Virus record (IMG/VR): IMGVR_UViG_3300048998_000119
Coordinates: 13,214-77,213 of that record
Origin: a virus
Taxonomy: Duplodnaviria > Heunggongvirae > Uroviricota > Caudoviricetes
DNA: 64,000 nt
Strand: one strand, 5' to 3'
The notes under the pieces are model-generated. The model had not been told where the DNA came from. It was given only the letters and a program-made list of their open reading frames with translations, and did not search any database. How positions within the stretch are numbered: position 1 is the first letter of the stretch; the number at the start of each line of letters is the position of its first letter. The translations under genes and the position numbers were made by a program. This document shows positions 31,008-63,970 of this stretch, piece by piece.

Positions 31008-32746
31008 TCGAACTTTCCCTTGGAGACACGCGTCTCCTCAACTTCTTCCATCTTTTCTGCCTCGAACTCTTCTTCGTCGTCCGAATAGATAGTCTCGTCG
31101 TAATTGAGACGACCTGTTTCGAACACATACGAGGCACCGGCGACTGGACCGGTTAGGCCGGTGTAGCGGCACTTGAGTACTTCCATTTCGATCTTGTTGC
31201 GGACGTTGTCTTTCTTTGCTCGCATATTACGAGCGAACGCCACAATGTCCATCGAGATCTGCTTGATCGAGCCGGAACCCTTGATGTCATCCATAGACGG
31301 CAACTTGCCTTCTTCGAATGCCTGGGAGCCGGACGAAACCTTACGCAGATGTGACACAACACCGATCCACACTTCATACCGCTTGACCAATGTCAGAAGC
31401 GCATTCATAAACTTGTCGATGGCTTCATTGCCGTCTGAGCCTTCAAAACCCTCGGAGGCGGCGATGGTGATGTGATCCAGATAGATGTGCTTGCAGCCCT
31501 TGAGACACAACCACTCCATCTTTTCAATCAGACCTGTGTCACTGACTGAACCTTGGTGATCCAACACAATGAACTGATCTGAACCGAACACCGCGTCGAA
31601 GCCCGGACGCATTTCCTCCAGCGTCATCGGCTCGTCTTGCGCGGCGGGATTCTTGTTCAACGCCATACCGGAGAACTTGCGGGCGGATTCACCCGGACCT
31701 TCCTCCAGCGCAATCCAGCCAATCTTCTGACTCGGATCTGGATTGCCGTCCTCGTCTACCAGATGATGCTCTTTGGTGAACAAGGCATCTTCACGCAGGA
31801 TGGTGCTCTTGCCCGACCCAGTGCCGGAAATGAACAGCGTGATGTCGCCGTACCGCTTACCCTTGGTCTTCTTATTGACGCCCGCGAGGCAGTCGGGGAA
31901 CAGCAGAGATTTGACCTTGCTGTCAGCTTCCATCTTTTCCCAGAGCTCGTCTCTGGACAGAAAGCCGCCCGGCGTATACGACTGAGCATCGAACATGGCG
32001 TTTATGAGCGCCGGTCCACCACTCTCCCGCAGGACGTCGTTGGCGTCCTTCTGAGGCAACTTGGTTATTTTGACTTTGTCGATGCCGACGATCTTGATCG
32101 CCTTCTCCAGGGCTGCTCTGCCGCTGGCGTCTTCATCGAAAGCCAGAACCACTTCATCGTACTGTCGTACTAACTCACGTCGTTCGAGCAAGAGTTTGAG
32201 ATTGGTGTCTGACCCAGCGGACATCACGGGATAGATCTTACCGTACTTGTCCATCATCGCTTCGGCGAACGCCATTGCGTCTTCTTCGCCTGTGGTCAGA
32301 ATAAGTCTCCGGTTACCACCTACGAAAGGAAGTCCTTCTCCGAACAGACCTTCAAGCTTACCCAGTCTGTACCAGCCGTCTTTGGGATAACGGCGAGCGT
32401 TGTATCCACCTGGATACGGATAGAACCTAGTATCCACCTTGCCGTTGCTGTTGAAGCTATTCTTCACCTTGAAGAACTCGTAGACCGCTGTGCTGATTTG
32501 CCTATCGCGGTCGCCCTTTGCAAGCTTCAACCCACTCACTTCTTCCATCGTCAACTGACGACTTGTACTCTTCAACAACGGAGATTTCTTCTCGGACGGG
32601 GGCCTCTCGATGTCGACCACGTCGCCCTCTTTTAACTGCTTCGCCGAGAATGACTTCTCACAGACGTAGCATTTTGCTCCACCATCCTCATAAATTTGCA
32701 TGCCATCGGATGATGGGCAGTATACACACGGTTGGTTATGCTTTAC
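31004..32746 (-). CDS. DNA primase/helicase (T7 gp4-like)
   Basis: Zn finger CVYC...CYVC, TOPRIM VVLAFDEDASGRAA, Walker A GTGSGKST; start trimmed to TTG after GGAG, overlapping GIY-YIG stop. Confidence 0.8.
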   Translation of the reverse strand, partial: VKHNQPCVYCPSSDGMQIYEDGGAKCYVCEKSFSAKQLKEGDVVDIERPPSEKKSPLLKSTSRQLTMEEVSGLKLAKGDRDRQISTAVYEFFKVKNSFNSNGKVDTRFYPYPGGYNARRYPKDGWYRLGKLEGLFGEGLPFVGGNRRLILTTGEEDAMAFAEAMMDKYGKIYPVMSAGSDTNLKLLLERRELVRQYDEVVLAFDEDASGRAALEKAIKIVGIDKVKITKLPQKDANDVLRESGGPALINAMFDAQSYTPGGFLSRDELWEKMEADSKVKSLLFPDCLAGVNKKTKGKRYGDITLFISGTGSGKSTILREDALFTKEHHLVDEDGNPDPSQKIGWIALEEGPGESARKFSGMALNKNPAAQDEPMTLEEMRPGFDAVFGSDQFIVLDHQGSVSDTGLIEKMEWLCLKGCKHIYLDHITIAASEGFEGSDGNEAIDKFMNALLTLVKRYEVWIGVVSHLRKVSSGSQAFEEGKLPSMDDIKGSGSIKQISMDIVAFARNMRAKKDNVRNKIEMEVLKCRYTGLTGPVAGASYVFETGRLNYDETIYSDDEEEFEAEKMEEVEETRVSKGKFD

Positions 32747-32750
32747 TATC

Positions 32751-33227
32751 TTACCCAACGTCACTCCAATCACTGACCGCAGCCAGACGCTGTTTATGCC
32801 TGAAGGTGACGTTCTCACGAACGGTCCATCCCACCTTCTCAATCCGAGTATTATACCAATTAGGTGTGGTGGGCGCTTCCACCATACACAGAGACCATGT
32901 TTCGGCGAAGGACAGACCAGATTTGGTCGAGTACTCTTCGATGCAGTAGAATTCAAACTCGTCTATGGGCCGTTGCGCAAACAACTGAGACATGGTCGTG
33001 GATGAAGACTTATACTTTCGCCAAGCGGTTTCTTCGCCGCCTTTGGTTACTCCGAGGACTCTGTATTGCTTCTTGCCGATGTAGCCGCGCTTGAGGACCA
33101 AGTCACGAATTGCATAGACGAAGCCAACCTTGCCGTCCATTCCCATTTTCTCCGGGAACACCCAGTGTCCGTTTGGATTGGACGCTTTGATGGACGGCGC
33201 TTTTGGTATATTACCCAAACTCACCAT
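32751..33227 (-). CDS. GIY-YIG homing endonuclease
   Basis: KVGFVYAIRDLVLKRGYIGKK. Confidence 0.65.
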   Translation of the reverse strand: MVSLGNIPKAPSIKASNPNGHWVFPEKMGMDGKVGFVYAIRDLVLKRGYIGKKQYRVLGVTKGGEETAWRKYKSSSTTMSQLFAQRPIDEFEFYCIEEYSTKSGLSFAETWSLCMVEAPTTPNWYNTRIEKVGWTVRENVTFRHKQRLAAVSDWSDVG

Positions 33228-34467: not shown

Positions 34468-36495
34468 TCAGTGAATTTCCCTCCAGTTCTTTCCGGTCTT
34501 GCCGCTGCCGTCCATGAAGTCGATTCCGAAAATCTTCGGACCTTCCTGGAAAGCCTTGACGCCCAACTCAGCCGCTCTGGCCGCGTGCTCATCCGGCACG
34601 GAGCAGTCGCCTTCGTCGTGCATAAAGATATGTGGCTTGAACGGAATACCTTCTTCGCGCATCCAGCGCATCCACAGCATAATAGCCGCAGAGCAAGTGG
34701 CCTTTTCAAACGCTTGCAGTAGATACACAAGTAGCTTGTGCGTCGAATCAACATACACAGGTACTCCACCGATTCCGGTGATGTAGCCACCCTTCTTGAT
34801 CGAACCGCTAAATCCAATCTTCTTGGTCTCTGCGAACTCACGATTGAGCGCCTTCTCCAGCTTGACTAGATTAGGAACTTTCTTCGTGAAACCCTTCTTA
34901 AGTTGACCGCCGAGCGTGGCGTCCGGTGAACCAAAGCAGTAGAGCCAGACTTTAGCGCCACCTGCTCCGAACAAGAACGCGTAATACACACGTTTAGATC
35001 GAGCACGTCTTTGCTTCCACATAACTTTTTCAGCCGCTTTGCGACCAGACGTGTAGTACTGCTCATAACTAATCCCCTTTCTGTCGAGGAATCGTTTGAG
35101 CGCACCTTTGGCTTTGGTGCTCTTGGCGAGGAACGCACCCCAGTCCACACCCATTTCTTTGAGCACTGCGTCCAGCGCCTTAGCGTTGTACATGTGGATG
35201 TCGCCCTTGGTGATGACGTCGATGTACTCAGCACTCTTCAGATAGAAGGCAAGTCCTCGTCCTTGGTTGCCCGCAGAGTCGCAACCCACCAGCGTCCATC
35301 CAGGCTCTGAAATGAAAAGGGATCGCATTTCTGGTCCCCATTTTGATTCCATTGCGGGGACGTTAACGATAATGCTGTGGCGCGCACGTAGACTCGGGGT
35401 GCCGATAGTGACGCAGTCACCGTGGAGTCGTCCTTCGGCGTCTGTGTTTTCAATCCACCCTTTGAGGATGGATAGTCGTGAAGATGCAACAGAGAACTCA
35501 CGATAGAGCTTACCGTCGCCGCCAAGAAACTCCAGACTCTCTTCGGTAATCTTAGGGCTTGTTTGGACCTTACGTTTTGTGGCTTCGTCGAATTTGCTGT
35601 TGTACTCAAGAGGTATCCATCCGTTTCTGAACAGAAATGTCTTCACATCATCTGTCGAACCAAGCTCAAGCGGCACCACCTTCATACGGCAGTACTCGCC
35701 GACGACCATGACTTCCTCGCCCGGATAACCGGACCAGGGATCCACATCGAAATAGGTGGCGATGTGTGAGTGATACGCACCTTCTTTGGTCCACCTAGTG
35801 GATTTGACTTCGACCTCTTTGCCCTGAGTGTTGGGCACCTTGTCGAGCGCCACCGTCTTCATTCCCAACTTGGGTTCCAACAGTGCTCTGTTCTTCTCGA
35901 CAAGTTCTTCTAGTTCAATCGCCAGCTTCGAACCGGTTTCGACGTCGAAGGGCCAACCTCCCATGTGAGCCATACCGACCCATTCGGACGCGGCGTGTTC
36001 GCACAGAAGATAATCAGCCAACTGAGGGGCTCGCTTGGACTTCGACTTGTACTCATCCAAGAGCATCTTGTACATGACGATGTTACCTTTGACGTCGCTC
36101 AAACAACGTGTCCTCATTTCTTGTGAGAACTGGCTCCAATCGTTATGCTCTTGCTTGTCGTAACCTGTGTGCTTGCCCCATTCGTCTTGGCTGTGTTTGA
36201 AATTGCCGAATCTGTTATAGTCCAACGCGCGAGACATAATGAGAGTATCTTGGAGTAACGCCTCTTCGGGAGGCACCCAGCCAGTCAACTTCTTGAATAA
36301 GGGCAGATCGTGTTCGATTATGTTCTGCCCGATGATGTGGGTGGCGGTTTCCAAACGTTCCTGCCACCCAAGATCACCTTCAAGATATTCCCATACCTCG
36401 CCCGTCTCGACATCTTCAATCACGACGATCCAGAGCCGAGTTGCCTCAAGCGCCAGACCGTCTGATTCAGAGTCGAATACGAGTTTTACAGCCAT
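34468..36495 (-). CDS. DNA polymerase, family A (T7 gp5-like) with 3'-5' exonuclease domain
   Basis: exo I FDSESDGL, motif B RRARSKRVYYAFLFGAG, motif C HDEGD. Confidence 0.8.
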   Translation of the reverse strand: MAVKLVFDSESDGLALEATRLWIVVIEDVETGEVWEYLEGDLGWQERLETATHIIGQNIIEHDLPLFKKLTGWVPPEEALLQDTLIMSRALDYNRFGNFKHSQDEWGKHTGYDKQEHNDWSQFSQEMRTRCLSDVKGNIVMYKMLLDEYKSKSKRAPQLADYLLCEHAASEWVGMAHMGGWPFDVETGSKLAIELEELVEKNRALLEPKLGMKTVALDKVPNTQGKEVEVKSTRWTKEGAYHSHIATYFDVDPWSGYPGEEVMVVGEYCRMKVVPLELGSTDDVKTFLFRNGWIPLEYNSKFDEATKRKVQTSPKITEESLEFLGGDGKLYREFSVASSRLSILKGWIENTDAEGRLHGDCVTIGTPSLRARHSIIVNVPAMESKWGPEMRSLFISEPGWTLVGCDSAGNQGRGLAFYLKSAEYIDVITKGDIHMYNAKALDAVLKEMGVDWGAFLAKSTKAKGALKRFLDRKGISYEQYYTSGRKAAEKVMWKQRRARSKRVYYAFLFGAGGAKVWLYCFGSPDATLGGQLKKGFTKKVPNLVKLEKALNREFAETKKIGFSGSIKKGGYITGIGGVPVYVDSTHKLLVYLLQAFEKATCSAAIMLWMRWMREEGIPFKPHIFMHDEGDCSVPDEHAARAAELGVKAFQEGPKIFGIDFMDGSGKTGKNWREIH

Positions 36496-38304: not shown

Positions 38305-40596
38305 CTAGACAAAGCAATATTCTGAATCCAGAACAGCCCTGATGTCCAACGTGCCGTAAACTATTTCCGACGCGTCACCCTGGATGTCCTTCATCAGATT
38401 TTGAAGTGGATCCGTCTGATACAGTTCCACAAACGTTTCTCGCACAATCCTGAACAAGTCAGGCATGTCGGCCAACAGACAACCGAAACTGTCGTGAATG
38501 GTCGTGACTGCAAACGGAGCCTTGTCCACAGTCATCGCGAGGTGAGCGGCGTCCAGAGAGTGAATACAGTTTGGACTTGCACCCGAAGCCTGCTTACCCT
38601 TTGAATGCTCAGTGTCTTCGATGAACGAAATGTTCAGCTGCAGCGTATTCTGATAGTAGCCGCTGAGCTTTCTCTCACCCAACGGAGGACCGTACTGGAT
38701 CCACCGCTTTTTGACTTTACCTTGGGTGTAGTGCTGGACGACCGGGAAGTTTGTTACGGGAACAGTCCAGCTCAAGAACCGCCCCTCCTCCTCAGCCTTA
38801 CGTCCGGCTTTCTCGAAGATCGACAGTAGCTGCATAGGCTTGGTGAGTGACAACTGAGCTGCCTCAAAGATGAGACGACCCATGTACGCACCCCACTTAT
38901 GTTCCATATACAGCAATAGTTCGATGCCGTGCTTCTTGGCGTCGTCTATCACCTGCTGTCCGAGTCCGTACGCGGTGCCGCCATACGGCAGTGTCATCAC
39001 ACCACGTTTCATCACCTTACGCCTGTCCTTGGCGCTGGTGAGTCTAGACCAGAAGACAGTAGAGGCGTCGTTGTTCAACTCCACATTGTCTTCTTTATAC
39101 GCTTTGATCTGTTCAACCAATTCCGCCCTACGGTCGCTGCTTGGTTCAGCCGCCGTGATTTGTTTCTTCAGTTCAATCAGATTGTCGATGAAGCGATTAA
39201 TCTCGTTCAGTCGCTCCTTGCTGAAGTCCGTCAGTCGGTCGACGATGATTCCCCAGACATAATCCGCCACAAAGCGATAGAGATCGCCCGGAAGCTCAAG
39301 CGGAACCAGATTCACGTGTGGCGCCGTGGTCTCGTCTCTGACCAACGCAGTCAGATGCTGTGAACCATTGTTAGAGCCGTCGATGAAACATTCCAGCGAA
39401 GATTCATAATCCGTTGGATCGCCGTGCTCAAGCGCTTTCCTCAACTCCAAACAAGCCGCCAAGAACTGCCACGGCTTATCTGCGTCCATCCACCCTTGAT
39501 TTACTTTAGGGGATTCGGCGTAAGATAAAATGATTTCAATGTTGTCTCGTGTCCAGGCTTCTCTGGCGTCGAGCGGGATTTTATCTGTCTTAAGACCATC
39601 GTCTCTGCCGGAGTTTCCGGCCCACGTAGAAGCGATGCTAATAAGTAGCCATCGGAATCCGGCCTCTCCGATAGACTTTGAATCGCTCCGGAGTAGGAGT
39701 CCGCGAGCGACGTCAGTGCCTTGTTCATGGAGATACGCTGTTGTGGGGTATTTGCGACCTCTAAAGTCATAATAATATAGATGATAAAACTCCTTGTCCA
39801 AGAAGCGTTTCGCCATACCGCTGATGGCTCGGGCTTCACGAAGTTTTGTTTGACGAGCCTGGGGGTTGCGTTGTTCCCAGATGTCGCTGAAGGCGTTTGT
39901 CTTGTTTCTCAACGCCCACAGCTGAAGTTCGTAAACCTCTTTGTTCACACGCCAACCGACTCGCTGCGCTTTGTTGATGCAGTTAAACAGAATCGGATGG
40001 GTGTCGGGCTGAACTGCGGCGAAGACTTCCTTGTTGCCGGTCTTGATCATGTAGTTGCCGGTCTCGTGCCTGGAGGCGATCCAAGGCGCGTACGCTGTTT
40101 CAGAAGGAAGCTTTTCTATGCGTTCATTAGGGATACTTTCCCAGAGAGCGATGATGCCCTCTTCGTTGTTGATCTGAATCATATATGCGTTGTGGTTCTT
40201 GTTACCTTGACCCAGCAACACCGTTAACAACTGCAGTTGTTCAAAGCTGAAGACGAAGAACGCGCCCACCTTAGCCGCCAAGGAAGAGTCGCGTTTGATC
40301 TTGTTTTTGTTCAGAATGTTGTGACCGATGGCGGCGATCACTTCTGTTAGATACACAGTCTTGTTCACACCCTTCTTCATACGGGTGTACAAGTACAAAG
40401 TAGTTATGGCTGCGTCGATACAACCCTCCAGGTCCACATCGCGCAGGAATATAAGAGGACTCTGCGGTGCGATCTCTCGCATAATGCGGTCATAGAGAAG
40501 TTGTTTCAGTTCTGATCTCATCCAAATAATATCCATGACAGAAGATCTAGACCGAAGTATAAGACTAGGAGTACGGCGACGACATACGAAGTGCAA
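38305..40596 (-). CDS. single-subunit DNA-dependent RNA polymerase (T7-like)
   Basis: motif A FIDGSNNGSQHLTAL, motif B RRKVMKRGVMTLPYGGTAYGLGQQV, motif C IHDSFGC; true start may be ATG at ~40536. Confidence 0.8.
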   Translation of the reverse strand: MHFVCRRRTPSLILRSRSSVMDIIWMRSELKQLLYDRIMREIAPQSPLIFLRDVDLEGCIDAAITTLYLYTRMKKGVNKTVYLTEVIAAIGHNILNKNKIKRDSSLAAKVGAFFVFSFEQLQLLTVLLGQGNKNHNAYMIQINNEEGIIALWESIPNERIEKLPSETAYAPWIASRHETGNYMIKTGNKEVFAAVQPDTHPILFNCINKAQRVGWRVNKEVYELQLWALRNKTNAFSDIWEQRNPQARQTKLREARAISGMAKRFLDKEFYHLYYYDFRGRKYPTTAYLHEQGTDVARGLLLRSDSKSIGEAGFRWLLISIASTWAGNSGRDDGLKTDKIPLDAREAWTRDNIEIILSYAESPKVNQGWMDADKPWQFLAACLELRKALEHGDPTDYESSLECFIDGSNNGSQHLTALVRDETTAPHVNLVPLELPGDLYRFVADYVWGIIVDRLTDFSKERLNEINRFIDNLIELKKQITAAEPSSDRRAELVEQIKAYKEDNVELNNDASTVFWSRLTSAKDRRKVMKRGVMTLPYGGTAYGLGQQVIDDAKKHGIELLLYMEHKWGAYMGRLIFEAAQLSLTKPMQLLSIFEKAGRKAEEEGRFLSWTVPVTNFPVVQHYTQGKVKKRWIQYGPPLGERKLSGYYQNTLQLNISFIEDTEHSKGKQASGASPNCIHSLDAAHLAMTVDKAPFAVTTIHDSFGCLLADMPDLFRIVRETFVELYQTDPLQNLMKDIQGDASEIVYGTLDIRAVLDSEYCFV

Positions 40597-52432: not shown

Positions 52433-52891
52433 TCAACGGGATGGATGATGCCGAGTCGGCCAAACCAAACGACCCGAAGCGACAGGCGTCCAGCCATCTT
52501 TTTCAAGCACTCGCTGGAACACACTCTGGTTATGAAGCGTACTGCTCGTCACCGCGATGTGGAAACCCTTCTTCTCAACCCACTCTCTGAAGTCTCTGTG
52601 GAAGTCACGTAACTCGTGAACAGCCTTGACGCCAGTAATGTTTGAGTGATAATAGATTTGACTGACCGCTCGAATCGGTGAGTGATGATTGCCGTGGCCT
52701 TCTATAGCCATCATCCAACCATGCTCACCGATCTTGAAGTACCGTCTATCCGCGATTGCTTGATTCAGGAAAGCTCTAAAATGAACTCGATCGTGTGGAA
52801 AGAATTCATCGTTGTAGCGTGCGTAGAGATCTTCGGACAGATCACAAATCCATCCGAAGTCTGATCTCTTAGCTTGTCTGTAAGTACCCAT
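52433..52891 (-). CDS. hypothetical protein (152 aa)
   Basis: ORF track. Confidence 0.4.
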   Translation of the reverse strand: MGTYRQAKRSDFGWICDLSEDLYARYNDEFFPHDRVHFRAFLNQAIADRRYFKIGEHGWMMAIEGHGNHHSPIRAVSQIYYHSNITGVKAVHELRDFHRDFREWVEKKGFHIAVTSSTLHNQSVFQRVLEKDGWTPVASGRLVWPTRHHPSR

Positions 52892-55508
52892 CTTGTGTCT
52901 GCGCCAAATAGGGTGCCAGCATCTTCATAGAGGGGCTGTCCACCGGAGCCGAATAGTTGTTGTTGTCTGGATCCAGATGATAGATGTAGCTGAGCGGGAA
53001 GCCCGAACCCCATGTCGTCCAACCAAACAACACATCTTTATGGTCAAGCATATACTGATACATACTTGCCATGATAGGTCCACAGATGGTCTGAGCGGGA
53101 TCGCCTCCCGCCGTCTCACCGATGAAACCTCGTTTGTTGTGGGCGGTCAACCAATCCACGAACTGGCTGATTCTGCCGGAGCCTGTTCCGGACACACAGA
53201 AAGCTGAAGTACCGGAACCGTCGCTGTCGTTATAGCTGTGGCAGTGGTAAACTTCATTGTTGGCCGGATCATAGCTGGTGATGTTGGCGTCGCCGTTGCC
53301 GTTCTTGATGAACGAACCCGCCGAAGCGTACTCAGACATTTCACGATGGATTAGACCGGTGAAGTTAGTCTGAGCGCGAATGGCGTTCATCACTGCTTGA
53401 TTTATGTCTCGGGCCCAACCGGCGCCCAAGGAGTTGTTCACATCCTTCGGCTCGTTCATGAGATCAAAGTGAACACGAGGGTTGCCTTGAAACACCAGCG
53501 CGAGTTTCACCCAGACATCGATTAGATGCATGGTATTCAGTTCCGCGCCGTTGTAACGAACAGTGACGCCTCGACCATAATACTTATTGTCTGTTGAGTT
53601 GAAATACGGCTCGATGTTGTACTCCATGAAGTTATGCATATCCAGCAGAATATATCCGCCGAGGACGTTAGTCCAATAATTGATAACTTCAATGATTCGC
53701 CGCATATCCTGGTCATTGCTACCGGTGAACGGTACGTCGGGTCCGTAATAGAGTGGTCCCATAAGAACAGGTTGAATACGTTCCCAACGAATTGGAAGAC
53801 GTGCATAGCGTACGCCCTTGGACCAGTAGTAGTCCATTCGCTCATGCTGATAGCCCACACCGTTTTCCGGCTTGGACGGGTAGTAATAACGACCGCCGTT
53901 GTACGCGTACTTCTTGCCTGTGGTTGGATCGAAGATTGCGCCGAACTCACCGCCTGAGATATTCAAACCGTAAAGATTCTTGGGACAAGGTGGTTTAATC
54001 AAACCCGACAAGTAGACACAACTGTCCGGTATCACAAGTGGATCGAGATCCGGATCCGTGAGCCGCATAGTGTGCTTGCCCGTACCCGCGTGAGGAACCG
54101 TAAAGGTCACAGCACCCTGTGCCAAGGCTGTGTTCGTCGTCGTCAGCCTCGTGCCGTTTAAGGACATAAAGCCGCTCGCCGCCAAAGCTGCCTGCAGCGC
54201 CGAGTCGAACCCTGGGGGTGAGTTGACCGACGCCAGCGTCACGCTGCTGGGATTGTCGTTGGCCGGACCTTGTAAGGTGTAGGTGATGGTCGTACCGTCC
54301 GAGGTGGCCCGCAGTTCCCAGAACCGAGGAGGAAGATCGGCGAAGATACGCGTCTGCGAACCTCCGTTCATGGCGACCGGCGTGTATTGCCTCCACCAGT
54401 TGTTACGATAGGTCGTGCCGTCTGAGGGTGGCGGATTGGCGGAAGACTTCGTGACTAGATCATAGATAAACTTTTGTCCCGTCGGAACATAGATTACCCA
54501 GTCACCTTTCTTGTAGATGGTGGTGTTGTTCCAGTTGCCCTGATACGACACTGTGGCATCTTCAAAGCCGACAGCCACATCGCCCTCGATTGAAACGTTG
54601 GTAATACAATCCCACTGCATCGGGAGAGGTTCCGCCACACCGTCTTGTTTGACGGTCAACAGTATGCTCATTGGTTTGGTGGGATCGTAGCCCTTGCCCC
54701 ACGTCACATAACCACCGTTGAACCACTGTCCGGCCGTCGCTTCAGTCCATTGTGGAATTTCCACAGTGCAACCGGCCTCAAGTGCGGCTTTACGCAACTG
54801 TGTTCGGAAGTCCGGATCCAACTGCTTCTGACCGACGTTCGCTTCGTAGATTTTACAGCGATGTCCCTCAATCAGATTTGTCGTGTAGTAAGTAACTCTG
54901 AAGGAATCTCCTTCCTTCAGCTGCGCCGACACCGCTCCGTGATCCACACTCTCACAGTAGATATTCATGGCGGGAACGCCGGTGGGTCTCCGCGATGTGT
55001 CACGTACGTAAATGTAGCTACCAGAACCTGGAGCGATGTCGCCGTTGCCATAACCCTTCAGCAAGATCTGAAGATCACGTCCCACAGTTTTATCCGGAAA
55101 AGTGGTGTTCTGATCGTCCGAACGGTTACGTCTCACCGTGTTGGTGAACGTCATCACGTCGAAGCCTTTATAACTCGGCGTCGTCCTGATGGCGAACGAC
55201 ATAGTGCCGGACACAGCTGGCGTAGTGGTGCTGGACAGACGCTGGCTTGTACAACCGTGCTTGGCACACTCCGCCGCCACAATACCGTCCCAGTCTTGAA
55301 CGTAGGCGCCGTTGCCGCCGATATTGCCGGGTCCAGTAAACCAGACCACAATCATTTCATCGCCGTTGCCGGATGGATTGAAACAAGCCAACGTCCAAGT
55401 AATGTCGTCTCCTTCGCTTATATAACGTTCATTCAAATGGAGTTTCTGCCACGCAGGTTTAAGTGCGTAAAACGGAAACTCCATCGACGTATTAAACGGA
55501 GTAATCAT
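52869..55508 (-). CDS. tail fibre/spike with C-terminal GH5-like glycosidase domain
   Basis: 879 aa; C-terminal HFDLMNEPKD and GFIGETAGG paralleling the GH5 motifs of the 1590..2825 gene. Confidence 0.65.
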   Translation of the reverse strand: MITPFNTSMEFPFYALKPAWQKLHLNERYISEGDDITWTLACFNPSGNGDEMIVVWFTGPGNIGGNGAYVQDWDGIVAAECAKHGCTSQRLSSTTTPAVSGTMSFAIRTTPSYKGFDVMTFTNTVRRNRSDDQNTTFPDKTVGRDLQILLKGYGNGDIAPGSGSYIYVRDTSRRPTGVPAMNIYCESVDHGAVSAQLKEGDSFRVTYYTTNLIEGHRCKIYEANVGQKQLDPDFRTQLRKAALEAGCTVEIPQWTEATAGQWFNGGYVTWGKGYDPTKPMSILLTVKQDGVAEPLPMQWDCITNVSIEGDVAVGFEDATVSYQGNWNNTTIYKKGDWVIYVPTGQKFIYDLVTKSSANPPPSDGTTYRNNWWRQYTPVAMNGGSQTRIFADLPPRFWELRATSDGTTITYTLQGPANDNPSSVTLASVNSPPGFDSALQAALAASGFMSLNGTRLTTTNTALAQGAVTFTVPHAGTGKHTMRLTDPDLDPLVIPDSCVYLSGLIKPPCPKNLYGLNISGGEFGAIFDPTTGKKYAYNGGRYYYPSKPENGVGYQHERMDYYWSKGVRYARLPIRWERIQPVLMGPLYYGPDVPFTGSNDQDMRRIIEVINYWTNVLGGYILLDMHNFMEYNIEPYFNSTDNKYYGRGVTVRYNGAELNTMHLIDVWVKLALVFQGNPRVHFDLMNEPKDVNNSLGAGWARDINQAVMNAIRAQTNFTGLIHREMSEYASAGSFIKNGNGDANITSYDPANNEVYHCHSYNDSDGSGTSAFCVSGTGSGRISQFVDWLTAHNKRGFIGETAGGDPAQTICGPIMASMYQYMLDHKDVLFGWTTWGSGFPLSYIYHLDPDNNNYSAPVDSPSMKMLAPYLAQTQDGYLQTS

Positions 55509-56062
55509 GAGACTACTAGGTCACCCACAAAGACATAGGCCGCAACACCGTTGCTGAACTTCTCGACACAGATAGCTGTGCTGCAAGACCACTGAGCACG
55601 GTGAACAGCCGCACCTTGACTGTTGCGGAAGGTCGCCGTCAGATTATTCACACCAGAATTGGTGGAACCCCAAGGGAACTTGCCGGTGCCGCGTTGGATA
55701 ATACCCACTTGTGAACCAACTTCGGCGGTCCAAGGCAAAAGGACGGTGACGTTGATGTTGGCGGCTGGACCGATGAGGTACAGAATTTTCTGATTGTGTT
55801 GAGCGAAGTCTACGGTGTAGGTGTTGCCCGAAGCCAGATTGACCTGGATGATCTGTTGCTTCTGGGCGTCGTACATAGTGCGAGCCGGGCAAGCTACCTG
55901 CCGATCGGCGTTGAGACCAATCGGAAGTGGATACTTACCGTCGCCCGCTACACCGCCGTTGTAGGTGCCCGCAGACCAATCGGCATACTTCTGAGTTGTG
56001 GCCGTCAAGAAATCCAGAGTCTTCTGGAGCTGTGCGTTGACGTCTTCAATGGTGAGACTCAT
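55505..56062 (-). CDS. tail-associated protein (185 aa)
   Basis: position between J-like protein and fibre. Confidence 0.4.
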   Translation of the reverse strand: MSLTIEDVNAQLQKTLDFLTATTQKYADWSAGTYNGGVAGDGKYPLPIGLNADRQVACPARTMYDAQKQQIIQVNLASGNTYTVDFAQHNQKILYLIGPAANINVTVLLPWTAEVGSQVGIIQRGTGKFPWGSTNSGVNNLTATFRNSQGAAVHRAQWSCSTAICVEKFSNGVAAYVFVGDLVVS

Positions 56063-56218: not shown

Positions 56219-59200
56219 TTAACCATAATAGGCTACTCCAAATAGTGTACGCGAAGCAATACCCACACCGCTGTTCCCCATTACGTCGAGGGTGACAGTG
56301 TAAGTGCCCGCAGCATTCATGTATAGTGGTGCGCTGAGTGCAATACTGTCGGAGGTCTTCTGACCACCTGTGGCGAACACGGCGACGCCGTTGATCGTGA
56401 GTCGAGCATTCCAACTCATATCACCACTTGGAAAGGCCAACTTGGCGCTGGCTTGAGCGAAGATGGTGCCCGGACCGTCCAGCACAACGATGACCGTCAT
56501 CTGCGTGGTCCAGGTTGAACTGAACTGCATGGTGTTGGTCGCACTCTGAATAGACGGAATGGAGACTGTGCCGCCTGTACCCACTTTAATTTTACCCACC
56601 ACGACTTCGTTCATATAAACGACGCCCTGTGAGATCTGGAAAGGTGTGATAGGCGAGCCACCGTTTGGATCGATCACCCGAAACGTATTGGCGGCGATGA
56701 TGTATTCGCTATAACCACCGGTTGAGGTGTTGAACGTACCCGTGATGTGACCTTGATCGTTCAATGTATTCAAAGAACGAAGAGTCGCACTTCCGTCTGG
56801 GGCGTAGACGATGTCATTGATCTGGTCGATCTGATAAGTCGCTTTGTCTGTATCCGAACGAAGTGTCTTGATCGAGCTGACCAGCGGTACACCGTTCTCT
56901 ACGTAAGCTGTATCGGCGGACAGATAGAAGGCTTTACCCGTACCGCCTGGACCGACACCCGAAGCACCCAACAGCGCAAGATCCTGAGCGTAACTCACGT
57001 TGCCGTCTGAGAACTGCGTCTGCAAGTGATCGATGACCGTGGCGATTGGCGTGCCGTTGATGTACTTGATGTCGTTGATGATCTTCTCGTTGTCGGCGTT
57101 CTTGATGATGGACAGCGCGAGATTGAACCCGTTTTGTGTCATCTGAGTCATCGCCGCTTGAGCTTCCAGATCACCCACCATCGTCCCGGCCGGAGCACCG
57201 CGTGTCGCGCCCGGTTCAGCTTGAACCTTGGAGAACAGTGTGATGCTGACCAAGTCACTGATGGTTGGATCGTTCGCTTCGCTGACAGACAACTGATAGA
57301 CACGTGTCTCTTCATCGAACGGAGTAACCACGATGCTCTGCTGATTGCTGTCGAAGGTGTTTGCGCCGGAGACCATATGCCAGTGATAGACAGGATTGAC
57401 ATAAGCATAAGCCAAAGCCTGCAGATCAATCTCGGTGGGAGTGTAGACTGCGTCGCCCGGACGATGAATGAACGTCAGTGCGTTCGAAACAATCGTCACA
57501 TGTCGTGTCCAGTTATGATTCAGGAACACCGCGTTGTAAGGATCGGTCAAAGTCATCTGAGACAACTTGCCGCCCGAACTAACGGCTCGCACACCGAAGA
57601 AAGCCGAAGCCGCATTGATGGCAGGAAGGTCATAGAAAGGCAGAGGAGAACGACCGATTTCCGAGTAGACCGGATTGCCGTTACTGTCCGTCGCGTCCAC
57701 GCCGGGTCGGTACACGTAGTACACATAACCGGCGAGCTCCGCGAGGTAGACAGGCGTCGTCACCAACTGACCCGAACTGTTCGTCCTGTCGCCGACCGGA
57801 GGCAGATAGTTCAACGCATACGGTTGAGGAATAAACGACGAGTACAGATTGGGCGCCGACGAATAAACGTCATCCTTGTTTGCCCAAGCCAACTGAGACA
57901 CATCGAAACGAGTGGTGTTCAGTGTAACCTTGGTGCCGTCAGAAGAAACCTTGGTCTCGTCCACACGCATGTATAGAGCCACATCGATGCCCAAGAAGAC
58001 ATCGGCGACCGCGAATTGAATGAAGTCACCCGGCTCAGGAAGCTTGTCCTGTACCAGAATTGTGAACTCATACTGTGCGGCAGAACGACTTGTGCGCACC
58101 AACTCTTCGCACTTGGCGAGAGCATGGAAAGGATCGGTGATGCCGTCAGCAAAGACGTCCGTCTCAAGCTTCAGACCGTTGTCTTCCGCTAACATCTGAT
58201 AGTAAACGCCGTTGGTTTCATTGACGTCGATGTAGGCGGAGTAAGCCGTCAGACGAGTATTCCAAAGAATTGTTGACGCCGAGTCAATCTTGGCCGCGAC
58301 ACCCTTGTAGTCGTTGCTGCCGCCTCCGGTGTTAGTGCCGGTGATGACGATCTTATACACGCCCGGATTCAGTGAAATGCTCGCCGTCTTGAGATTCTTC
58401 ACGTCGGACACGCTACCGTTGTAGACTGAAGCGCCGGTGGCGTTGTTGGTGATCGCGATTGCGCAACTGTCGTCGCCAGCATAAGTCAGCGTATAGTTGC
58501 CTGAACTGTTGTTGTCGACATACAGCATATATTGCAGAGAAGTCGAGTTCCCGGTGCCCTTCCAGACATTGTATTGGTTCAACAGTCTGCCGGAAGCTGT
58601 GGTGTCGTCCCATGAACCCACACCCGAAGGATAGGTCTGCGCGCCGATGCCTCGCTTGTACGAGTTGTTGAACTTAGGAGGCCAGCTTACACTGTCTTCT
58701 GTGAAGTTCTCGTGTTCGTTGTGGAAACGAACCGTGCCGAAGTTGAACCTGTCGGAGGCGCTCGGCCATTGAACAGAGAACTCTTCTCCGAAAGCGAAGT
58801 TGTCGTCATTGACCAACATGTCGATTTTGATGTCGGCGTTGGTCAGCGGATACTGAATCGACAACTTGTACTTACCGTTCGACCAGACGAGACGCGTGTC
58901 GCCCATGGTTGCCAAGATCGACTCGATGTTGTCTCGAATCGGTTTGCTGGTGTCCACAAGCATGTTGCACTCATAGAGAGGGATGTCGCGCTTGCTGATC
59001 GTGTTGGTGCCGTCGGTTGGCTGCCAGATCTTACCGCCCACGTTCATATTGGTCTGCACAATGAAAGTGCGGATCGCCTCAGCGTGTTCAAAAGAAGCCA
59101 AATCAATCTCACTGAGATCGTAGCCACCGCCGTCAAGCGGATCCAGCATATAGTCCAGCAAACAGTAAGGACCACCGTTGTTGTAGCGGTAGTTCGTCGG

Positions 59201-60004
59201 ATCTTGCTCGTAAGTCTGAGTGGTTGAAATGACACCGTTCGTCACCCAACGAACCAGACGACCTTCGGCGTAAACCTGAATCGGCGGAATGTTGTTGAAC
59301 TGAGGATTGTCACGATCGATGCGAATAACCGCAGACAGATGCGCCATGCCTGTAAACAAGGCATTAGATCGCTCGGAAAAGTTCGCGGCGATAATTGAGT
59401 CGGCTGTGCCCCCGTTGTTGTGAATGTCCACACGCAGAGCGGCCTTGACGCCGGTGTGCTCCTTGGTCGTGACCGTCTTCTCGATCTTGCCGTAGCTGCC
59501 GAGCGTCGGATCGTCGATGTACCTCGAACCATCCACGACAATGTCGCGCACGCCCGCGATCGGACCCACACAAAGCGCCTGTTGATAGAACAAGAAGTCG
59601 TTGCGACCACCGTCCAGGCTCTGATTTAGATAACCCGCGCCCTGAGCATTGACGGTTGCACTCTTGTCCAAGAAGGTGGCGGTGTCGTCGCCCCACTGCT
59701 TATAGTTGTACGTGTAGCCAGCGACACCTGCGTCGCCGGTCAAATAACTCTTGTCGGAGTTTGGAGCCACATACTTAAAGTTACCAGAGGTCGCCGACCA
59801 AGAGCGAATGCCCCCGACCAGTGCTCGACCGTACAGAATAGGAAGATACGAAGGCTGGCCTTCAGAAACAATCTCGAAACCCTTACGGGCGTCCGCTGCC
59901 GCTTCAGCGGCTCGCTTCATCTTCTTTGCTTGGATAATCTGGAACGCCGTGGTCGCCGCAGTGACAACCAGAGCGATGATGGCTACTACAAGTTCGAAAC
60001 CCAT
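56219..60004 (-). CDS. large tail tip/central fibre protein (host-specificity J-like, 1261 aa)
   Basis: size and position after minor tail proteins downstream of tape measure. Confidence 0.55.
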   Translation of the reverse strand: MGFELVVAIIALVVTAATTAFQIIQAKKMKRAAEAAADARKGFEIVSEGQPSYLPILYGRALVGGIRSWSATSGNFKYVAPNSDKSYLTGDAGVAGYTYNYKQWGDDTATFLDKSATVNAQGAGYLNQSLDGGRNDFLFYQQALCVGPIAGVRDIVVDGSRYIDDPTLGSYGKIEKTVTTKEHTGVKAALRVDIHNNGGTADSIIAANFSERSNALFTGMAHLSAVIRIDRDNPQFNNIPPIQVYAEGRLVRWVTNGVISTTQTYEQDPTNYRYNNGGPYCLLDYMLDPLDGGGYDLSEIDLASFEHAEAIRTFIVQTNMNVGGKIWQPTDGTNTISKRDIPLYECNMLVDTSKPIRDNIESILATMGDTRLVWSNGKYKLSIQYPLTNADIKIDMLVNDDNFAFGEEFSVQWPSASDRFNFGTVRFHNEHENFTEDSVSWPPKFNNSYKRGIGAQTYPSGVGSWDDTTASGRLLNQYNVWKGTGNSTSLQYMLYVDNNSSGNYTLTYAGDDSCAIAITNNATGASVYNGSVSDVKNLKTASISLNPGVYKIVITGTNTGGGSNDYKGVAAKIDSASTILWNTRLTAYSAYIDVNETNGVYYQMLAEDNGLKLETDVFADGITDPFHALAKCEELVRTSRSAAQYEFTILVQDKLPEPGDFIQFAVADVFLGIDVALYMRVDETKVSSDGTKVTLNTTRFDVSQLAWANKDDVYSSAPNLYSSFIPQPYALNYLPPVGDRTNSSGQLVTTPVYLAELAGYVYYVYRPGVDATDSNGNPVYSEIGRSPLPFYDLPAINAASAFFGVRAVSSGGKLSQMTLTDPYNAVFLNHNWTRHVTIVSNALTFIHRPGDAVYTPTEIDLQALAYAYVNPVYHWHMVSGANTFDSNQQSIVVTPFDEETRVYQLSVSEANDPTISDLVSITLFSKVQAEPGATRGAPAGTMVGDLEAQAAMTQMTQNGFNLALSIIKNADNEKIINDIKYINGTPIATVIDHLQTQFSDGNVSYAQDLALLGASGVGPGGTGKAFYLSADTAYVENGVPLVSSIKTLRSDTDKATYQIDQINDIVYAPDGSATLRSLNTLNDQGHITGTFNTSTGGYSEYIIAANTFRVIDPNGGSPITPFQISQGVVYMNEVVVGKIKVGTGGTVSIPSIQSATNTMQFSSTWTTQMTVIVVLDGPGTIFAQASAKLAFPSGDMSWNARLTINGVAVFATGGQKTSDSIALSAPLYMNAAGTYTVTLDVMGNSGVGIASRTLFGVAYYG

Positions 60005-60591
60005 TATGCTCTACCCCATTTTAGGATGAGCGAGCCCGACCCTGTGTAAATTGAATCGAAGCTGGCGTCTTTGGCGTTGCGATGACGCACGTTGTCGCGA
60101 GACAGATAGAAGCCACGACTTTGTTCCAACGACACCATAGGCGAAGCTCCCGAAATGACATACACAGCTTCGCCGACTGCTTCTGTGCTCAACGTACCGG
60201 AACAACCGTCGATGATACCTTGATACAGAATAAACGTATCGGCGAAGGTGGCCTGCACGAGACCGGTGTCTGGATTAACGAACCCGAGATAGACAGTCAT
60301 GTCCATGCCGACCAGCCCGTTTTCGGCTTCCGCCTGCAACCCGAAAGTGTCGTCTTGAACAGTAAGCTTATACTGCTCACGATCGACCGTTGAGCTCTGT
60401 TGCGGTGGATCCGCTGAAATAATAAAATCGTCTGCTTTGTAAGTGACGTTGTCCTGGAAAGTGAAATCAGAATAATGTGTCGTGGAGGCCCGGAAAACAG
60501 TTCCCGAACCATCCACAATCTTCACGAAGAAGAGACATTCTGCTTTATTCGTCTTGATCCACGACGCCACCAAAGGGCTGAAGGTGATCAT
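60004..60591 (-). CDS. minor tail protein (195 aa)
   Basis: position. Confidence 0.45.
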   Translation of the reverse strand: MITFSPLVASWIKTNKAECLFFVKIVDGSGTVFRASTTHYSDFTFQDNVTYKADDFIISADPPQQSSTVDREQYKLTVQDDTFGLQAEAENGLVGMDMTVYLGFVNPDTGLVQATFADTFILYQGIIDGCSGTLSTEAVGEAVYVISGASPMVSLEQSRGFYLSRDNVRHRNAKDASFDSIYTGSGSLILKWGRA

Positions 60592-61184
60592 TATACATTC
60601 TCGATTATTTTCACGACGCCGTTGTCCATCAAGATGGCGTCTTCATAAACCATTCCCTGCACCGTGTCTGTGTCGTACAGACAATCCATGATGACATCAT
60701 CCTGGAAAGTGAAGGTGGTGGCGTTCTGAGGGATACGAAGCTGTGGGTAGATACCCAACGGCCCCGTACCGGTCAGAGTAGTTGTGGTCATGTAGATCTT
60801 CGAGTGATTCGAAAATCTGATGAAGGTGCCCGTGGGGATAATTCCCACGTTATTGGCTACCGTCACCTGTGTGGCTCCAAGCGAGCCTGTGCAAGTCGGA
60901 GTGGAGGTGGACGTCTTCGCTTGCTTCGCGCCCTGATTCTGGGGAACGATGATCTGGAAGACGTCCGTATTTCCTTTCACAATCATGTGCGTCATCACGA
61001 TGTGAGCGCCCGTACGCTTGGGGTCGAAGCGAGCTTCAAGTTCCCAACGCTGCGAAGAGCGCTTCATCACGTTACGCTTCAGAGAAGCAGAGTCGTTGGC
61101 GAACACCGGCTTATTGGTCCGCAGCGTGAGTGGAACCACAAACTCGGCAATCACTACGCCATTGTCCAAAAGACCGTATGCCAT
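60591..61184 (-). CDS. minor tail protein (197 aa)
   Basis: position directly after tape measure. Confidence 0.45.
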   Translation of the reverse strand: MAYGLLDNGVVIAEFVVPLTLRTNKPVFANDSASLKRNVMKRSSQRWELEARFDPKRTGAHIVMTHMIVKGNTDVFQIIVPQNQGAKQAKTSTSTPTCTGSLGATQVTVANNVGIIPTGTFIRFSNHSKIYMTTTTLTGTGPLGIYPQLRIPQNATTFTFQDDVIMDCLYDTDTVQGMVYEDAILMDNGVVKIIENV

Positions 61185-63970
61185 TACCTAATACCTTTTT
61201 CTCGATTATGAGCGTTCACGCCCCGAGTGATCTCTGGGATCATTTCGAAGATAGTGCGCTTAGTCTGGCGGCTGATGTCGCCTGTGATCGGAATGTTGAT
61301 AGTCTGAGACGTCTTGCTGTTGTCGGTGGTGGGCATAGACTTGTCGATTGCTTGAGTGGCCATACCGATGTCGACACCCGCTCCAACCAAGCCACCGTCG
61401 GCGTACTTCGGGACTTGATCGTTGTTGATCGCCGTCAGCAAACCACGATGTTTCCCAACCTGTTTCGCCTTGACGACGAACTCACCGTTGGACAGCATAG
61501 CAGGAATGGAGTCAGACGTACTGGTGCCTGGGCCCTTGACGTGACCGCCGTCTGCGAACAGATTGCCGATCAACATACCCAAAAGACTACCAGCTGTGGC
61601 TGCGGCACCAATCATACCACCGCCTCCACCACCACCTGCAGAGGTCACAGACTTGAGCGAGTCGCCCATAGTCTTACCCATGTCGGGAGCGATTTTCAGC
61701 AGAGGATTGGCGATGTCGCCGCCGATGTCCGGAGCCTTGCTCGTGAGCACAGACGCGATTGCGCCGCCCGGACTGTCCTTCTTCTTGCCGCCGAACAACT
61801 TACCGAGGCCTCCGAAGAGACCACCGCCCGACGCCTTATCGTTGGCCGGAGCGGCCATTGACGTCATCTGAGACAGCATACCGGAGACCGGGATCTTGTC
61901 GGAATTCATGTCGATGGACTTGGGATCCAACAGACCGGCCACATCAGGTGTGTACGTAGATGCAATGTCGCTGACGCTCTTACCCTTGTCGAGCAAGCCG
62001 CCGAGACCGCCGCCCGCTTTAGCCGTGGAACCACCAATCAGATCAAAGATACCACCCATCTTGGAACCCTGGCCGAACAGTTTGTCGGTCAACGAACCGG
62101 TGAAGCCATCGATAATCTTATTGGTGAACGTGGAGGCGATGTCCATGAGATTGAACTTGCCGGTTTTGATGAACTTGCTGATGCCTTCGGAGAAGCTACT
62201 CTTCATTGTGTTGGTGAAGTCTTCGCCCGCCTGCTTGGCCTTATCTTCAGGTTTGTCCAGCAATCGTCCGAGAATCTTGTGATTCGCGTCAATCTTCTGC
62301 TGAGCCGCCTGACGACCTTGTTCATCCAAACCACCGTCAATTTGCTCCTGCAGATTCTTAATGTTCTGCATGATACCAACAATCTGCGCCTGGGCCTTGC
62401 TGGACAGACGATTGAAAGCACTCTTGTCGACCTGATCGCCGGTTTCACTCGCCAAAGCGGTGACCCGTGCATAAACAGAACGATAGATGCTCTGATTTTC
62501 GTTGATGGCACTAGTCAAGTCCGCCGTGGCATTGGTCATGCTAGTGCGGATTTCGCGACTGTTGATCGGATTGTCTTCGAGCTGTTTAGCCCAAGCTTCC
62601 ATCTTGGTCAGATAATCCTGCACCTGCTTAACCGTGTCCGGCGTCAGCATCTGATACTCTTCTTTGGTGATGTTCAGACCCATAGGTTCCAAACTACCAG
62701 CCATAGCGTCGTATGAGTTGCGACCTGCGTTGACCTTACTGGTGATGTCGGGAGTCATGGTCGCAATTTTAGACTGCTGATCGGCGACGAATTCCGCCAC
62801 ACCCGGAGTGTTGGCCGCTACGTCGTTTGCACCCTTCAGCTTACGCTTAATGGGAACAATCGAGTTGAGGATTTCCGCACGCGTTGATGCAGCCATCTTC
62901 AAGTACTCTTTCATCGTCAGACGAAGTTTCGGGAACATTTCATTGATGATGTCGAGTTCATCGCTGAACTTAATGTCGGGATCGGTCTCGGTGGTCGTGG
63001 TCTTCGGACCCTTTGTTTTGTCGTCTGCCTTAGGATTGGCGCCGGACAACGCAGAGGTTTGAGCCACAGCAGAGAAGTTACGCAGGTCCTGCATGTCGGC
63101 GATTTGCTTATCGATATTGGCGATAATACGACCACCGGCCCACTTCATCACGCCGCTGCTGACCTTAGCCGTGTTGGCTGCAGTCTCAGCACGTGTGGCT
63201 TGCAGCTGAGCGATCCTGACGTCGATTGGGTTTACGTCTACGCCCACGCTGATATTGACGGCGTCGGGAGCTTTGTAATCGACCTTGGCCTTAGTCTTAG
63301 CCTTAGATGCCCGAGTGTGCGTCTTCACACCACCCATGTTACGATCGATCTGATGCTGAATGGCCATGCCACCGTCCGCGAAGGCCGGGAGAGGCTGTCC
63401 GCCGTTGATGGCTTCCAGAAGATCTTTGTGGCGTGCGGTCGAAGCCGCGTTCACCACGTACTCACCGTTGGACAACCAAGCAAGAACGTCGTCACTCTTA
63501 CCCGTACCCGGACCGGAGATTGGACCGCCAGTGGCGTGTGATTGGATTATGTCACCATTCTCATCACGCTTTGTTCCAAACATCCAATCGCCGATACGGT
63601 CAGCAACAGAAACAGTCTTCTTAGGAATATTTCCGTTTCGCTGATCTTCAACTTTGATGTTTGGATCGTAGTTGGGAAGCCCCTTCTTGCCCGGCAAAGC
63701 CTTAGGCATCAAACTCTTCAGCAATTGAACATAGGCGTTTTGATGTGCAAGGGCTAGTTTGAAATAAGGTACCTGTGGCAGAGTGACGAAATCACCATGC
63801 ACGTTATCGAGCCAAGAGTATTTGTATTGCTGCATAGAAGCGTATTTAGCTTCTTTAGTGCGCGCATGAAACTCTAGTTCTTTCTCTTGCAAATTTTCAA
63901 AGTCACTAGTGTATAACTTCTTGGCGGCCACCACATCAGGACGTTTATTGATGGCGTCGATGGTGTTCAT
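61184..63970 (-). CDS. tail tape-measure protein
   Basis: 928 aa; repeated TMP signature GGPISGPGTGKSDDVLAWLSNGEYVV / GHVKGPGTSTSDSIPAMLSNGEFVV; Ala/Gln-rich helical middle; Gly-rich stretch. Confidence 0.7.
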   Translation of the reverse strand: MNTIDAINKRPDVVAAKKLYTSDFENLQEKELEFHARTKEAKYASMQQYKYSWLDNVHGDFVTLPQVPYFKLALAHQNAYVQLLKSLMPKALPGKKGLPNYDPNIKVEDQRNGNIPKKTVSVADRIGDWMFGTKRDENGDIIQSHATGGPISGPGTGKSDDVLAWLSNGEYVVNAASTARHKDLLEAINGGQPLPAFADGGMAIQHQIDRNMGGVKTHTRASKAKTKAKVDYKAPDAVNISVGVDVNPIDVRIAQLQATRAETAANTAKVSSGVMKWAGGRIIANIDKQIADMQDLRNFSAVAQTSALSGANPKADDKTKGPKTTTTETDPDIKFSDELDIINEMFPKLRLTMKEYLKMAASTRAEILNSIVPIKRKLKGANDVAANTPGVAEFVADQQSKIATMTPDITSKVNAGRNSYDAMAGSLEPMGLNITKEEYQMLTPDTVKQVQDYLTKMEAWAKQLEDNPINSREIRTSMTNATADLTSAINENQSIYRSVYARVTALASETGDQVDKSAFNRLSSKAQAQIVGIMQNIKNLQEQIDGGLDEQGRQAAQQKIDANHKILGRLLDKPEDKAKQAGEDFTNTMKSSFSEGISKFIKTGKFNLMDIASTFTNKIIDGFTGSLTDKLFGQGSKMGGIFDLIGGSTAKAGGGLGGLLDKGKSVSDIASTYTPDVAGLLDPKSIDMNSDKIPVSGMLSQMTSMAAPANDKASGGGLFGGLGKLFGGKKKDSPGGAIASVLTSKAPDIGGDIANPLLKIAPDMGKTMGDSLKSVTSAGGGGGGGMIGAAATAGSLLGMLIGNLFADGGHVKGPGTSTSDSIPAMLSNGEFVVKAKQVGKHRGLLTAINNDQVPKYADGGLVGAGVDIGMATQAIDKSMPTTDNSKTSQTINIPITGDISRQTKRTIFEMIPEITRGVNAHNREKGIR

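Follow-up and report, generated by a model that had tools for sequence, protein, structure and literature searches.

Erwinia phage vB_EamP-S6 (Schitoviridae) encodes a GH5 cellulase, gp095, and it is reported that bacterial cellulose is the first receptor of this phage, that gp095 degrades carboxymethylcellulose and that infection requires host cellulose (Knecht et al. 2022, summarised in the commentary PMC9544554). When re-checked, gp095 showed Ig-like domains (ASH/HYDIN) followed by PF00150 at aa 431-755 with both catalytic Glu, and its neighbour gp094 showed Calx-beta and GH48, the two genes lying just upstream of the lysis genes. Large phage proteins annotated as GH5 also occur, as predicted viral structures, in Erwinia phages phiEaP8 and pEp_SNUABM_01, Pseudomonas phages Skulduggery and POR1, and Klebsiella phage SopranoGao. 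Here we analyse a protein of 879 amino acids (aa) that ends in a GH5 domain and is encoded at 52869..55508, on the minus strand of a 64,000-nucleotide stretch of phage DNA (the window; positions 13,214 to 77,213 of IMG/VR record IMGVR_UViG_3300048998_000119). We consider it probable that this protein is a tail-tip depolymerase, which binds and cleaves a surface glucan of a Sphingomonas-type host before a tip protein resembling lambda J reaches a second receptor.

Like gp095, the 879-aa protein is large, with predicted beta-sandwiches in its N-terminal part and GH5 at its C-terminus, its gene stands just before the lysis genes, and a second glucanase is present in the same phage (in S6, gp094 with its Calx-beta). 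The proposed role is also the same, namely the degradation of a host beta-1,4-glucan that is used as receptor. The two proteins nevertheless share only 26% identity over 152 aa (E 1e-4), confined to GH5 and with no similarity in the N-terminal part, so that we found no full-length homology between them. A tblastn search of the 879-aa protein against 50,697 phage records gave one match, restricted to the GH5 part, and recovered neither S6 gp095 nor its annotated relatives, and megablast of the gene against the same records gave no match.

The differences extend to the context of the two proteins. The N-terminal domains are Ig-like of the ASH/HYDIN type in gp095 and belong to a family with no Pfam match in the window; the second enzyme is a GH48 with no signal peptide in S6 and a predicted Sec-exported GH5 in the window; and S6 is an N4-like podovirus of a gamma-proteobacterium, whereas the window has a lambda-like tail module and its relatives are phages of Sphingomonas. 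By analogy, the 879-aa protein would work like gp095 while standing outside the gp095 family, with another GH5 lineage, N-terminal module, phage type and host class. The presence of a GH5 in such a protein is therefore solid but unsurprising, since S6 was already known to do likewise, and what the window adds is an extension of that precedent to another phage morphotype, GH5 lineage and bacterial class. An earlier note on this DNA had proposed a polysaccharide receptor, and this is plausible given the S6 precedent (PMC9544554).

The GH5 domain of the 879-aa protein

The gene starts with ATG and is the last gene of the tail module; an identical protein (P0001) is encoded on a 77-kb contig. Its sole Pfam domain is PF00150 (cellulase, GH5) at aa 563-834, scoring 102 bits (E 4.3e-29) where the curated cut-off is 23.5 bits, which excludes a chance match. 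The C-terminal GH5 domain announced in the earlier note is thus present, together with both motifs quoted for it. AlphaFold models of this protein and of the second GH5 protein of the window both show strands alternating with helices in a (beta/alpha)8 barrel, which in the 879-aa protein spans aa 511-875 (52884..53978, minus strand) and matches XacCel5A in Foldseek with E 3e-22 and a TM score of 0.85 relative to the target.

Within the barrel, E686 of N685-E686-P687 (FDLMNEP, 53448..53456, minus strand) is the predicted general acid/base and E798 (GFIGETAGG, 53115..53117, minus strand) the predicted catalytic nucleophile, and H757-S758-Y759 (53232..53240, minus strand) forms the conserved His-x-Tyr of GH5. 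In a HMMER alignment with Cel5A of T. aurantiacus (Ta Cel5A), E686 falls on E133, E798 on E240 and Y759 on Y200, and E133 and Y200 are positions altered in the catalytic-variant PDB entries 9f0n, 7r28 and 7r2a. R570, H625, N685, E686, P687, H757, Y759, G797 and E798 are all invariant in 13 full-length homologues that share 39-44% identity. This invariance of the whole catalytic set at such divergence makes it extremely unlikely that the domain is a catalytically dead, lectin-like binding module, even though enzyme folds are used for binding only in some phage receptor-binding proteins.

By both sequence and fold, the top solved relatives of the domain are XacCel5A/Xac0030 (4w7u, 5hnn) and Xac0029 (5hos) of X. 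citri, followed by endo-beta-1,4-glucanases of T. aurantiacus (1gzj, 1h1n), P. verruculosum, A. niger and T. reesei (Cel5A, 3qr3). The 29 best solved matches are all Xanthomonas or fungal endo-beta-1,4-glucanases, at an identity of just 25-30%, and the signature HxYxDSDGSGTSxxCVS...GE(F/T)AGG is common to the phage domain and the GH5 endoglucanases. We take these Xanthomonas and fungal enzymes to be GH5 subfamily 5 of CAZy. The Xac enzymes and the T. aurantiacus and T. reesei Cel5A are best matches for both GH5 proteins of the window, with the catalytic pair shared, and the earlier claim that the two have the same chemistry is reasonable because XacCel5A and the fungal subfamily-5 endoglucanases are the nearest structures of both.

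The solved Cel5A enzymes, however, are free-standing, secreted cellular proteins of about 300-340 aa that act on plant or soluble beta-glucans, whereas in the phage the domain contains a loop insertion (about aa 626-657) and is carried on a 510-aa N-terminal module. Judged from its residues, the domain has the full set predicted for a retaining GH5 endo-beta-1,4-glucanase and is probably a subfamily-5-like enzyme of this kind. Searches of PHROGs, NCBIfam and PADLOC gave no match for either GH5 protein of the window, and scans for promoters and terminators around the two genes gave counts at chance level.

The tail-tip cassette and the N-terminal module

On the minus strand the tail module reads tape measure (61184..63970, phrog_25241), distal tail protein (60591..61184, phrog_1302), a 195-aa protein, a 1261-aa J-like central tail tip protein (56219..60004), a 185-aa protein referred to here as p185 (55505..56062; phrog_34656, a family of unknown function) and the 879-aa GH5 protein, after which come an open reading frame (ORF) of 152 aa, a holin-like protein and an endolysin (phrog_181). 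The assignment of the tip comes from weak matches of its C-terminal part to the lambda tip attachment protein J (PF09327, E 3e-3; PDB 8jvm, E 7e-4). The stop codon of p185 and the start of the 879-aa gene overlap as ATGA, that is, the two genes are translationally coupled.

The same tail gene order was found in six further loci, and the gene of the 879-aa type closes the tail module in all seven. In every one of them the order runs from the tape measure to a large tip protein (with PF13550 in that of IW22), a protein of 184-201 aa and the GH5 protein, the last two genes overlapping by 4 nt. When the window was compared with the six loci by tblastn, three parts were shared: the last ~360 aa of the tip (31-37% identity), p185 (26-36%), which accompanies the fibre in all related loci, and the fibre itself (35-47%). 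The C-terminal third of the tip (aa 901-1261; 56219..57304, minus strand) is the sole part of that protein common to the fibre-bearing loci; its N-terminal and middle parts, the 195-aa and 197-aa proteins and the lysis genes were unrelated in the same tblastn comparison.

A set of host-recognition genes that passes as one block from one tail backbone to another would be expected to leave such a pattern, the block here comprising the gene region of the tip C-terminus together with the genes of p185 and the fibre. That only these three parts are shared across the loci is the strongest argument, although still an indirect one, for the action of the GH5 protein at the tail tip, and it makes p185 a candidate adaptor or assembly factor. 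The arrangement resembles the lambda tail tip (J, then Stf/Tfa), with a tape measure, a distal tail protein, a J-like tip and an accessory adsorption protein in turn, but the 879-aa protein has no similarity to lambda Stf in sequence or predicted fold, the accessory protein of the window being a TIM-barrel enzyme and not a trimeric fibre.

The N-terminal module (aa 1-510; 53979..55508, minus strand) belongs to a rare family. In the AlphaFold model of the whole protein (13-sequence alignment; pLDDT 73, pTM 0.60) it is predicted to form four domains of the beta-sandwich type, at about aa 19-125, 142-307, 321-375 and 385-500, with a disordered linker at aa 520-540 between them and the barrel. Fold matches of this part were generic only (Ig-like, Calx-beta, integrin-type), and aa 321-375 resemble CBM5/12 below threshold (E 0.11). 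The module is presumed to serve in virion attachment and glycan binding. The label of fibre, also used in the earlier note, is taken solely from where the gene lies; its place as the last gene of the tail module agrees with that label, but the model is a string of beta-sandwiches followed by a TIM barrel rather than a classical trimeric fibre.

When aa 1-510 were searched exhaustively with phmmer in a set of 1.84 billion representative proteins, just 18 clusters were returned. PF00150 was at the C-terminal end in 16 of the 16 that were checked (10 by Pfam scan and six from precomputed Pfam domains); the remaining two are fragments, one of them, of 155 aa, being too short to include the C-terminal domain. 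Since the 16 clusters checked all carry GH5, the architecture is old and fixed and not a recent fusion to a generic fibre. The earlier description of the domain as fused to a fibre was thus correct in placing it at the C-terminus, but in the clusters checked the N-terminal module never came without it. For the same reason we rejected the idea that the module is a generic adaptor with interchangeable enzymes.

In the mechanism that we favour, the N-terminal part probably anchors the protein at the tail tip, via the C-terminal region of the J-like tip and/or p185, and probably also holds the glycan. The GH5 domain would bind a beta-1,4-linked, gluco-configured surface polymer of a Sphingomonas-type host, the candidates being bacterial cellulose (as for S6) or a sphingan-type exopolysaccharide (EPS), and would cleave beta-1,4 links by double displacement, E686 protonating the leaving group and E798 forming the glycosyl-enzyme intermediate. 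The virion would in this way cut its path to the outer membrane, where the J-like tip would engage the second receptor. The backbone of sphingans is Rha-Glc-GlcA-Glc; it contains beta-1,4 links and is decorated with acetyl or glyceryl groups (PMC4443731). We found no literature on cellulose production by Sphingomonas. The parts of this proposal that we infer are the presence of the protein in the virion, the identity of the substrate, the genus of the host and the two steps of adsorption.

The function proposed here, that of a virion-borne enzyme which binds and cleaves a surface polysaccharide and so opens the way to the membrane, is shared with tailspike depolymerases such as the P22 tailspike, the K1F endosialidase and the Klebsiella capsule depolymerases. 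Classical tailspike depolymerases are trimeric right-handed beta-helices or beta-propellers, whereas the enzyme of the window is a (beta/alpha)8 barrel of clan GH-A.

Several observations weigh against the tail-tip reading. Outside GH5, the 879-aa protein has no Pfam, PHROG or NCBIfam match, tail-fibre signatures included, and no solved phage protein resembles its N-terminal part, where the pLDDT is only about 50-85. Neither a recognisable N-terminal anchor nor a fibrous trimeric shaft was found by profile scans or in the monomer model, which contains no coiled coil or beta-helix of the sort typical of trimeric fibres and spikes. Presence in the virion and the substrate are proposals, and GH5 specificity cannot be deduced from a sequence. 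The GC content of the window is 52.4%, below the 56-65% of the related Sphingomonas loci that bear the fibre (most at 60-65%, L014 at 56%). Finally, the gene sits at the boundary between tail and lysis genes, before those for the holin-like protein and the endolysin.

This last position could mean that the protein is not part of the virion at all, but a soluble, cytoplasmic enzyme freed at lysis, which would loosen the matrix or biofilm surrounding the lysed cell or strip receptors off nearby cells and debris. The similar order in S6 (GH5, GH48, small proteins, endolysin) and the failure to detect a known fibre-anchor domain fit this idea, and a free depolymerase released at lysis acts on neighbouring cells in Klebsiella biofilms (PMC11373596). 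We nevertheless regard it as rather unlikely, because what the protein accompanies from locus to locus is the tip C-terminus and p185, whereas the lysis genes vary among the loci and are not recognisable behind the fibre gene in two of them (L011 and L014). In addition, the gene is translationally coupled to the tail gene upstream, and a free enzyme would have no need of some 510 aa of conserved domains that are not catalytic.

The 879-aa family was located in Sphingomonas sp. BAUL-RG-20F-R05-02, IW22, CFBP 13714 and LB3N6, in S. yantingensis DSM 27244 (also present as an IMG/VR provirus) and in several metagenomic phage contigs, so that all named owners are Sphingomonas. Given the lower GC content of the window, the assignment of its host depends solely on the likeness of the recognition cassette and of the second GH5 gene, from which we infer Sphingomonas as the host genus. 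Little is known of Sphingomonas phages, whose hosts produce EPS of industrial use (gellan, welan, diutan); both GH5 enzymes of the window are possible tools with which to cut or type the polysaccharides of Sphingomonas.

A second GH5 enzyme and its variable partners

The second GH5 enzyme (411 aa; 1590..2825, minus strand; PF00150, E 1.1e-21, 78 bits) is encoded ~50 kb from the 879-aa gene, amid head genes, where the order is portal and further genes, an 866-aa protein, the short GH5, a 134-aa protein, a MuF-domain protein and the scaffold. The protein comprises a signal peptide (aa 1-20; 2766..2825, minus strand), a small beta domain (aa 21-112; aa 22-102 in the AlphaFold model, pLDDT 81) and, at aa 113-411, a GH5 barrel that is complete in the model and matches solved GH5 structures in Foldseek with E 3e-16 and a TM score of 0.75. 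E216 (IIDLMNEP; 2178..2180, minus strand) lies in N215-E216-P217, which is invariant in 16 sequences, as are E338 (MGEGAGG; 1812..1814, minus strand) and four Cys.

The N-terminus reads MMIKYFLMLFMLLSSTVAYA followed by D, and has the features by which we recognised Sec (signal peptidase I) signals, a hydrophobic h-region of 10-15 aa standing between a positive n-region and an AxA cleavage motif. The layout recurs in 16 of 16 aligned homologues (a positive residue, 12-16 hydrophobic residues and AxA) and is visible in five of six additional IMG/VR loci; the database gene call of the window protein starts at the second Met. Such conservation makes Sec export of the short GH5 well supported. The earlier note had called this enzyme soluble and Sec-exported, which agrees with the signal peptide, but in a Gram-negative host the predicted destination is the periplasm and not necessarily the medium. 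In the 879-aa protein no export signal is evident, the maximum over 12 aa on the Kyte-Doolittle scale being 0.37 as against 2.21 in the short GH5.

In all 11 loci where it was found the short GH5 lies directly downstream of a large ORF, and all 11 are phage or provirus contigs, with typical phage genes recognisable around most. We had considered that this ORF might be one conserved partner, an idea that was rejected as its domains differ among the loci. The partner carries Calx-beta and a GDSL esterase in L002 and L018, a SASA acetylesterase in L004, a weak GH43 in L005, GH30 and fn3 in L016, an FAD oxidoreductase in L017 (where the short GH5 is present as two tandem copies), another GH5 in L019 and Calx-beta in L021, and has no Pfam match in L006/L007 and L020. 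Most of these partners are unrelated, though domains that act on glycans or bind them are usual among them; several share segments of the Calx-beta type, and those of L002 and L018 are clearly related.

In the window the partner is the 866-aa protein (2822..5422, minus strand), translationally coupled to the short GH5 through an ATGA overlap, with a glycine-rich domain (PF21722) at its N-terminus that scores slightly below the cut-off; it has no homologue in any other locus compared. By eye it contains many degenerate peptide repeats of ~20 aa (VKADASLLTENDVL-like), and no tandem repeats were found in its gene at the DNA level.

A late phage gene for a Sec-exported glycanase is an uncommon arrangement, and this pairing of a variable glycan-active protein with a secreted GH5, with a possible attack on the receptor inside the infected cell, is to us the most interesting thread of the analysis. 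Sec would carry the short GH5 to the periplasm of the cell under infection. Tentatively, and with the odds against it, the pair could be a mobile two-gene module of Sphingomonas phages in which the exported GH5 cuts nascent glucan from inside the periplasm and destroys the receptor before lysis. If so, progeny would not be trapped and superinfection would be blocked, and the virion-bound GH5 would do the same job from outside at entry. The esterase partners in other phages would fit an acetylated polymer.

Both GH5 genes might instead be read as auxiliary metabolic genes, through which the phage would provide its host with cellulases for growth on beta-glucans of plants or algae, as has been proposed for the carbohydrate-active enzymes of soil prophages. 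Their nearest solved structures are indeed plant-cell-wall endoglucanases, the short GH5 is predicted to be secreted, and pipelines that exclude structural genes solely by Pfam tail-fibre matches would call both auxiliary (method in PMC13507307). Against this, both genes form part of late structural operons, in translational coupling with neighbours of structural type; the long GH5 has no export signal, and its gene closes the tail module in seven of seven loci; and the 11 loci of the short GH5 are all on phage or provirus contigs, so that we hold a metabolic role to be improbable. The case is a warning for virome surveys, where Pfam shows just 'Cellulase' and adsorption machinery would be counted as a carbon-cycling auxiliary metabolic gene.

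The earlier note had also called the two GH5 enzymes clearly paralogous, and proposed aligning them. In that alignment (hhalign of the two family profiles; 99.8% probability, E 9e-30) NEP falls on NEP, HxY on HxY and GE on GE, the catalytic Glu residues being conserved in both enzymes, so that the refuting outcome named in the note did not occur. The two are homologous, but the window proteins share just 24% identity over 222 aa (BLASTP, E 9e-13), and when all proteins were compared with one another, about 24 GH5 proteins of the stand-alone kind (68-310 bits) outrank the short family (at most 66 bits) as relatives of the fibre domain, for which reason 'clearly paralogous' is an overstatement. 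From these comparisons the short GH5 appears to be a separate, anciently diverged lineage, homologous to the fibre domain and not its nearest relative.

The scenario in which the pair arose by duplication within the phage lineage, one copy being fused to the fibre and the other gaining a signal peptide, is very improbable on the same grounds. It would account for the shared motifs and closest structures and for the co-occurrence of the long and short families, which in the strict sense is seen in two phages, the window phage and the prophage of BAUL-RG-20F; three of the seven fibre loci have a second GH5 of one kind or another. However, that prophage has a separate orthologue of each (43% identity for the fibre, 65% for the short GH5), each GH5 belongs to a different mobile cassette, and six short-GH5 loci have no long fibre within 10 kb.

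The prophage of IW22 carries a GH5 of a third lineage (L013 14698..15936; 412 aa), which keeps NEP and the nucleophile Glu. It follows a 615-aa Sde182_NH-like and LamG protein, directly downstream of the long GH5 fibre, and was rejected as a member of the short secreted family since it belongs to a lineage of its own and has no signal peptide.

Other features of the phage

The phage encodes its own RNA polymerase (38305..40596), DNA polymerase (34468..36495), primase-helicase (31004..32956) and ribonucleotide reductase (29103..31007), the RNA polymerase matching phrog_414 and also an N4-like RNA polymerase. Nearly all genes of the window are on the minus strand, the window has no tRNA genes, and no integrase was found among the proteins scanned, which were part of the ORFs; together, these features point to a virulent phage. 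Megablast and tblastn found no close relative among GenBank phages.

The ORFs directly behind the two GH5 genes, of 152 aa (52433..52891, minus strand, with 23 nt in common with the 3' end of the fibre gene) and 134 aa (1189..1593, minus strand), were compared with the thought that they might be related to each other, which was rejected as they proved unrelated. Neither has a Pfam, PDB or PADLOC match or a homologue in the related loci.

The gene of a 1525-aa protein with a Phage_Mu_F domain separates the short-GH5 cassette from the scaffold and capsid genes; the 5' end of this gene is at 1..1046 of the window, and it continues in L001 (10401..14978). The protein also has a faint match to PF00940 (single-subunit RNA polymerase) and may be a large ejected or head-internal protein. 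Lastly, a 650-aa protein (14204..16156, minus strand) matches phrog_1735, a family of unknown function, over its full length (E 4e-179) and is widely conserved in phages.

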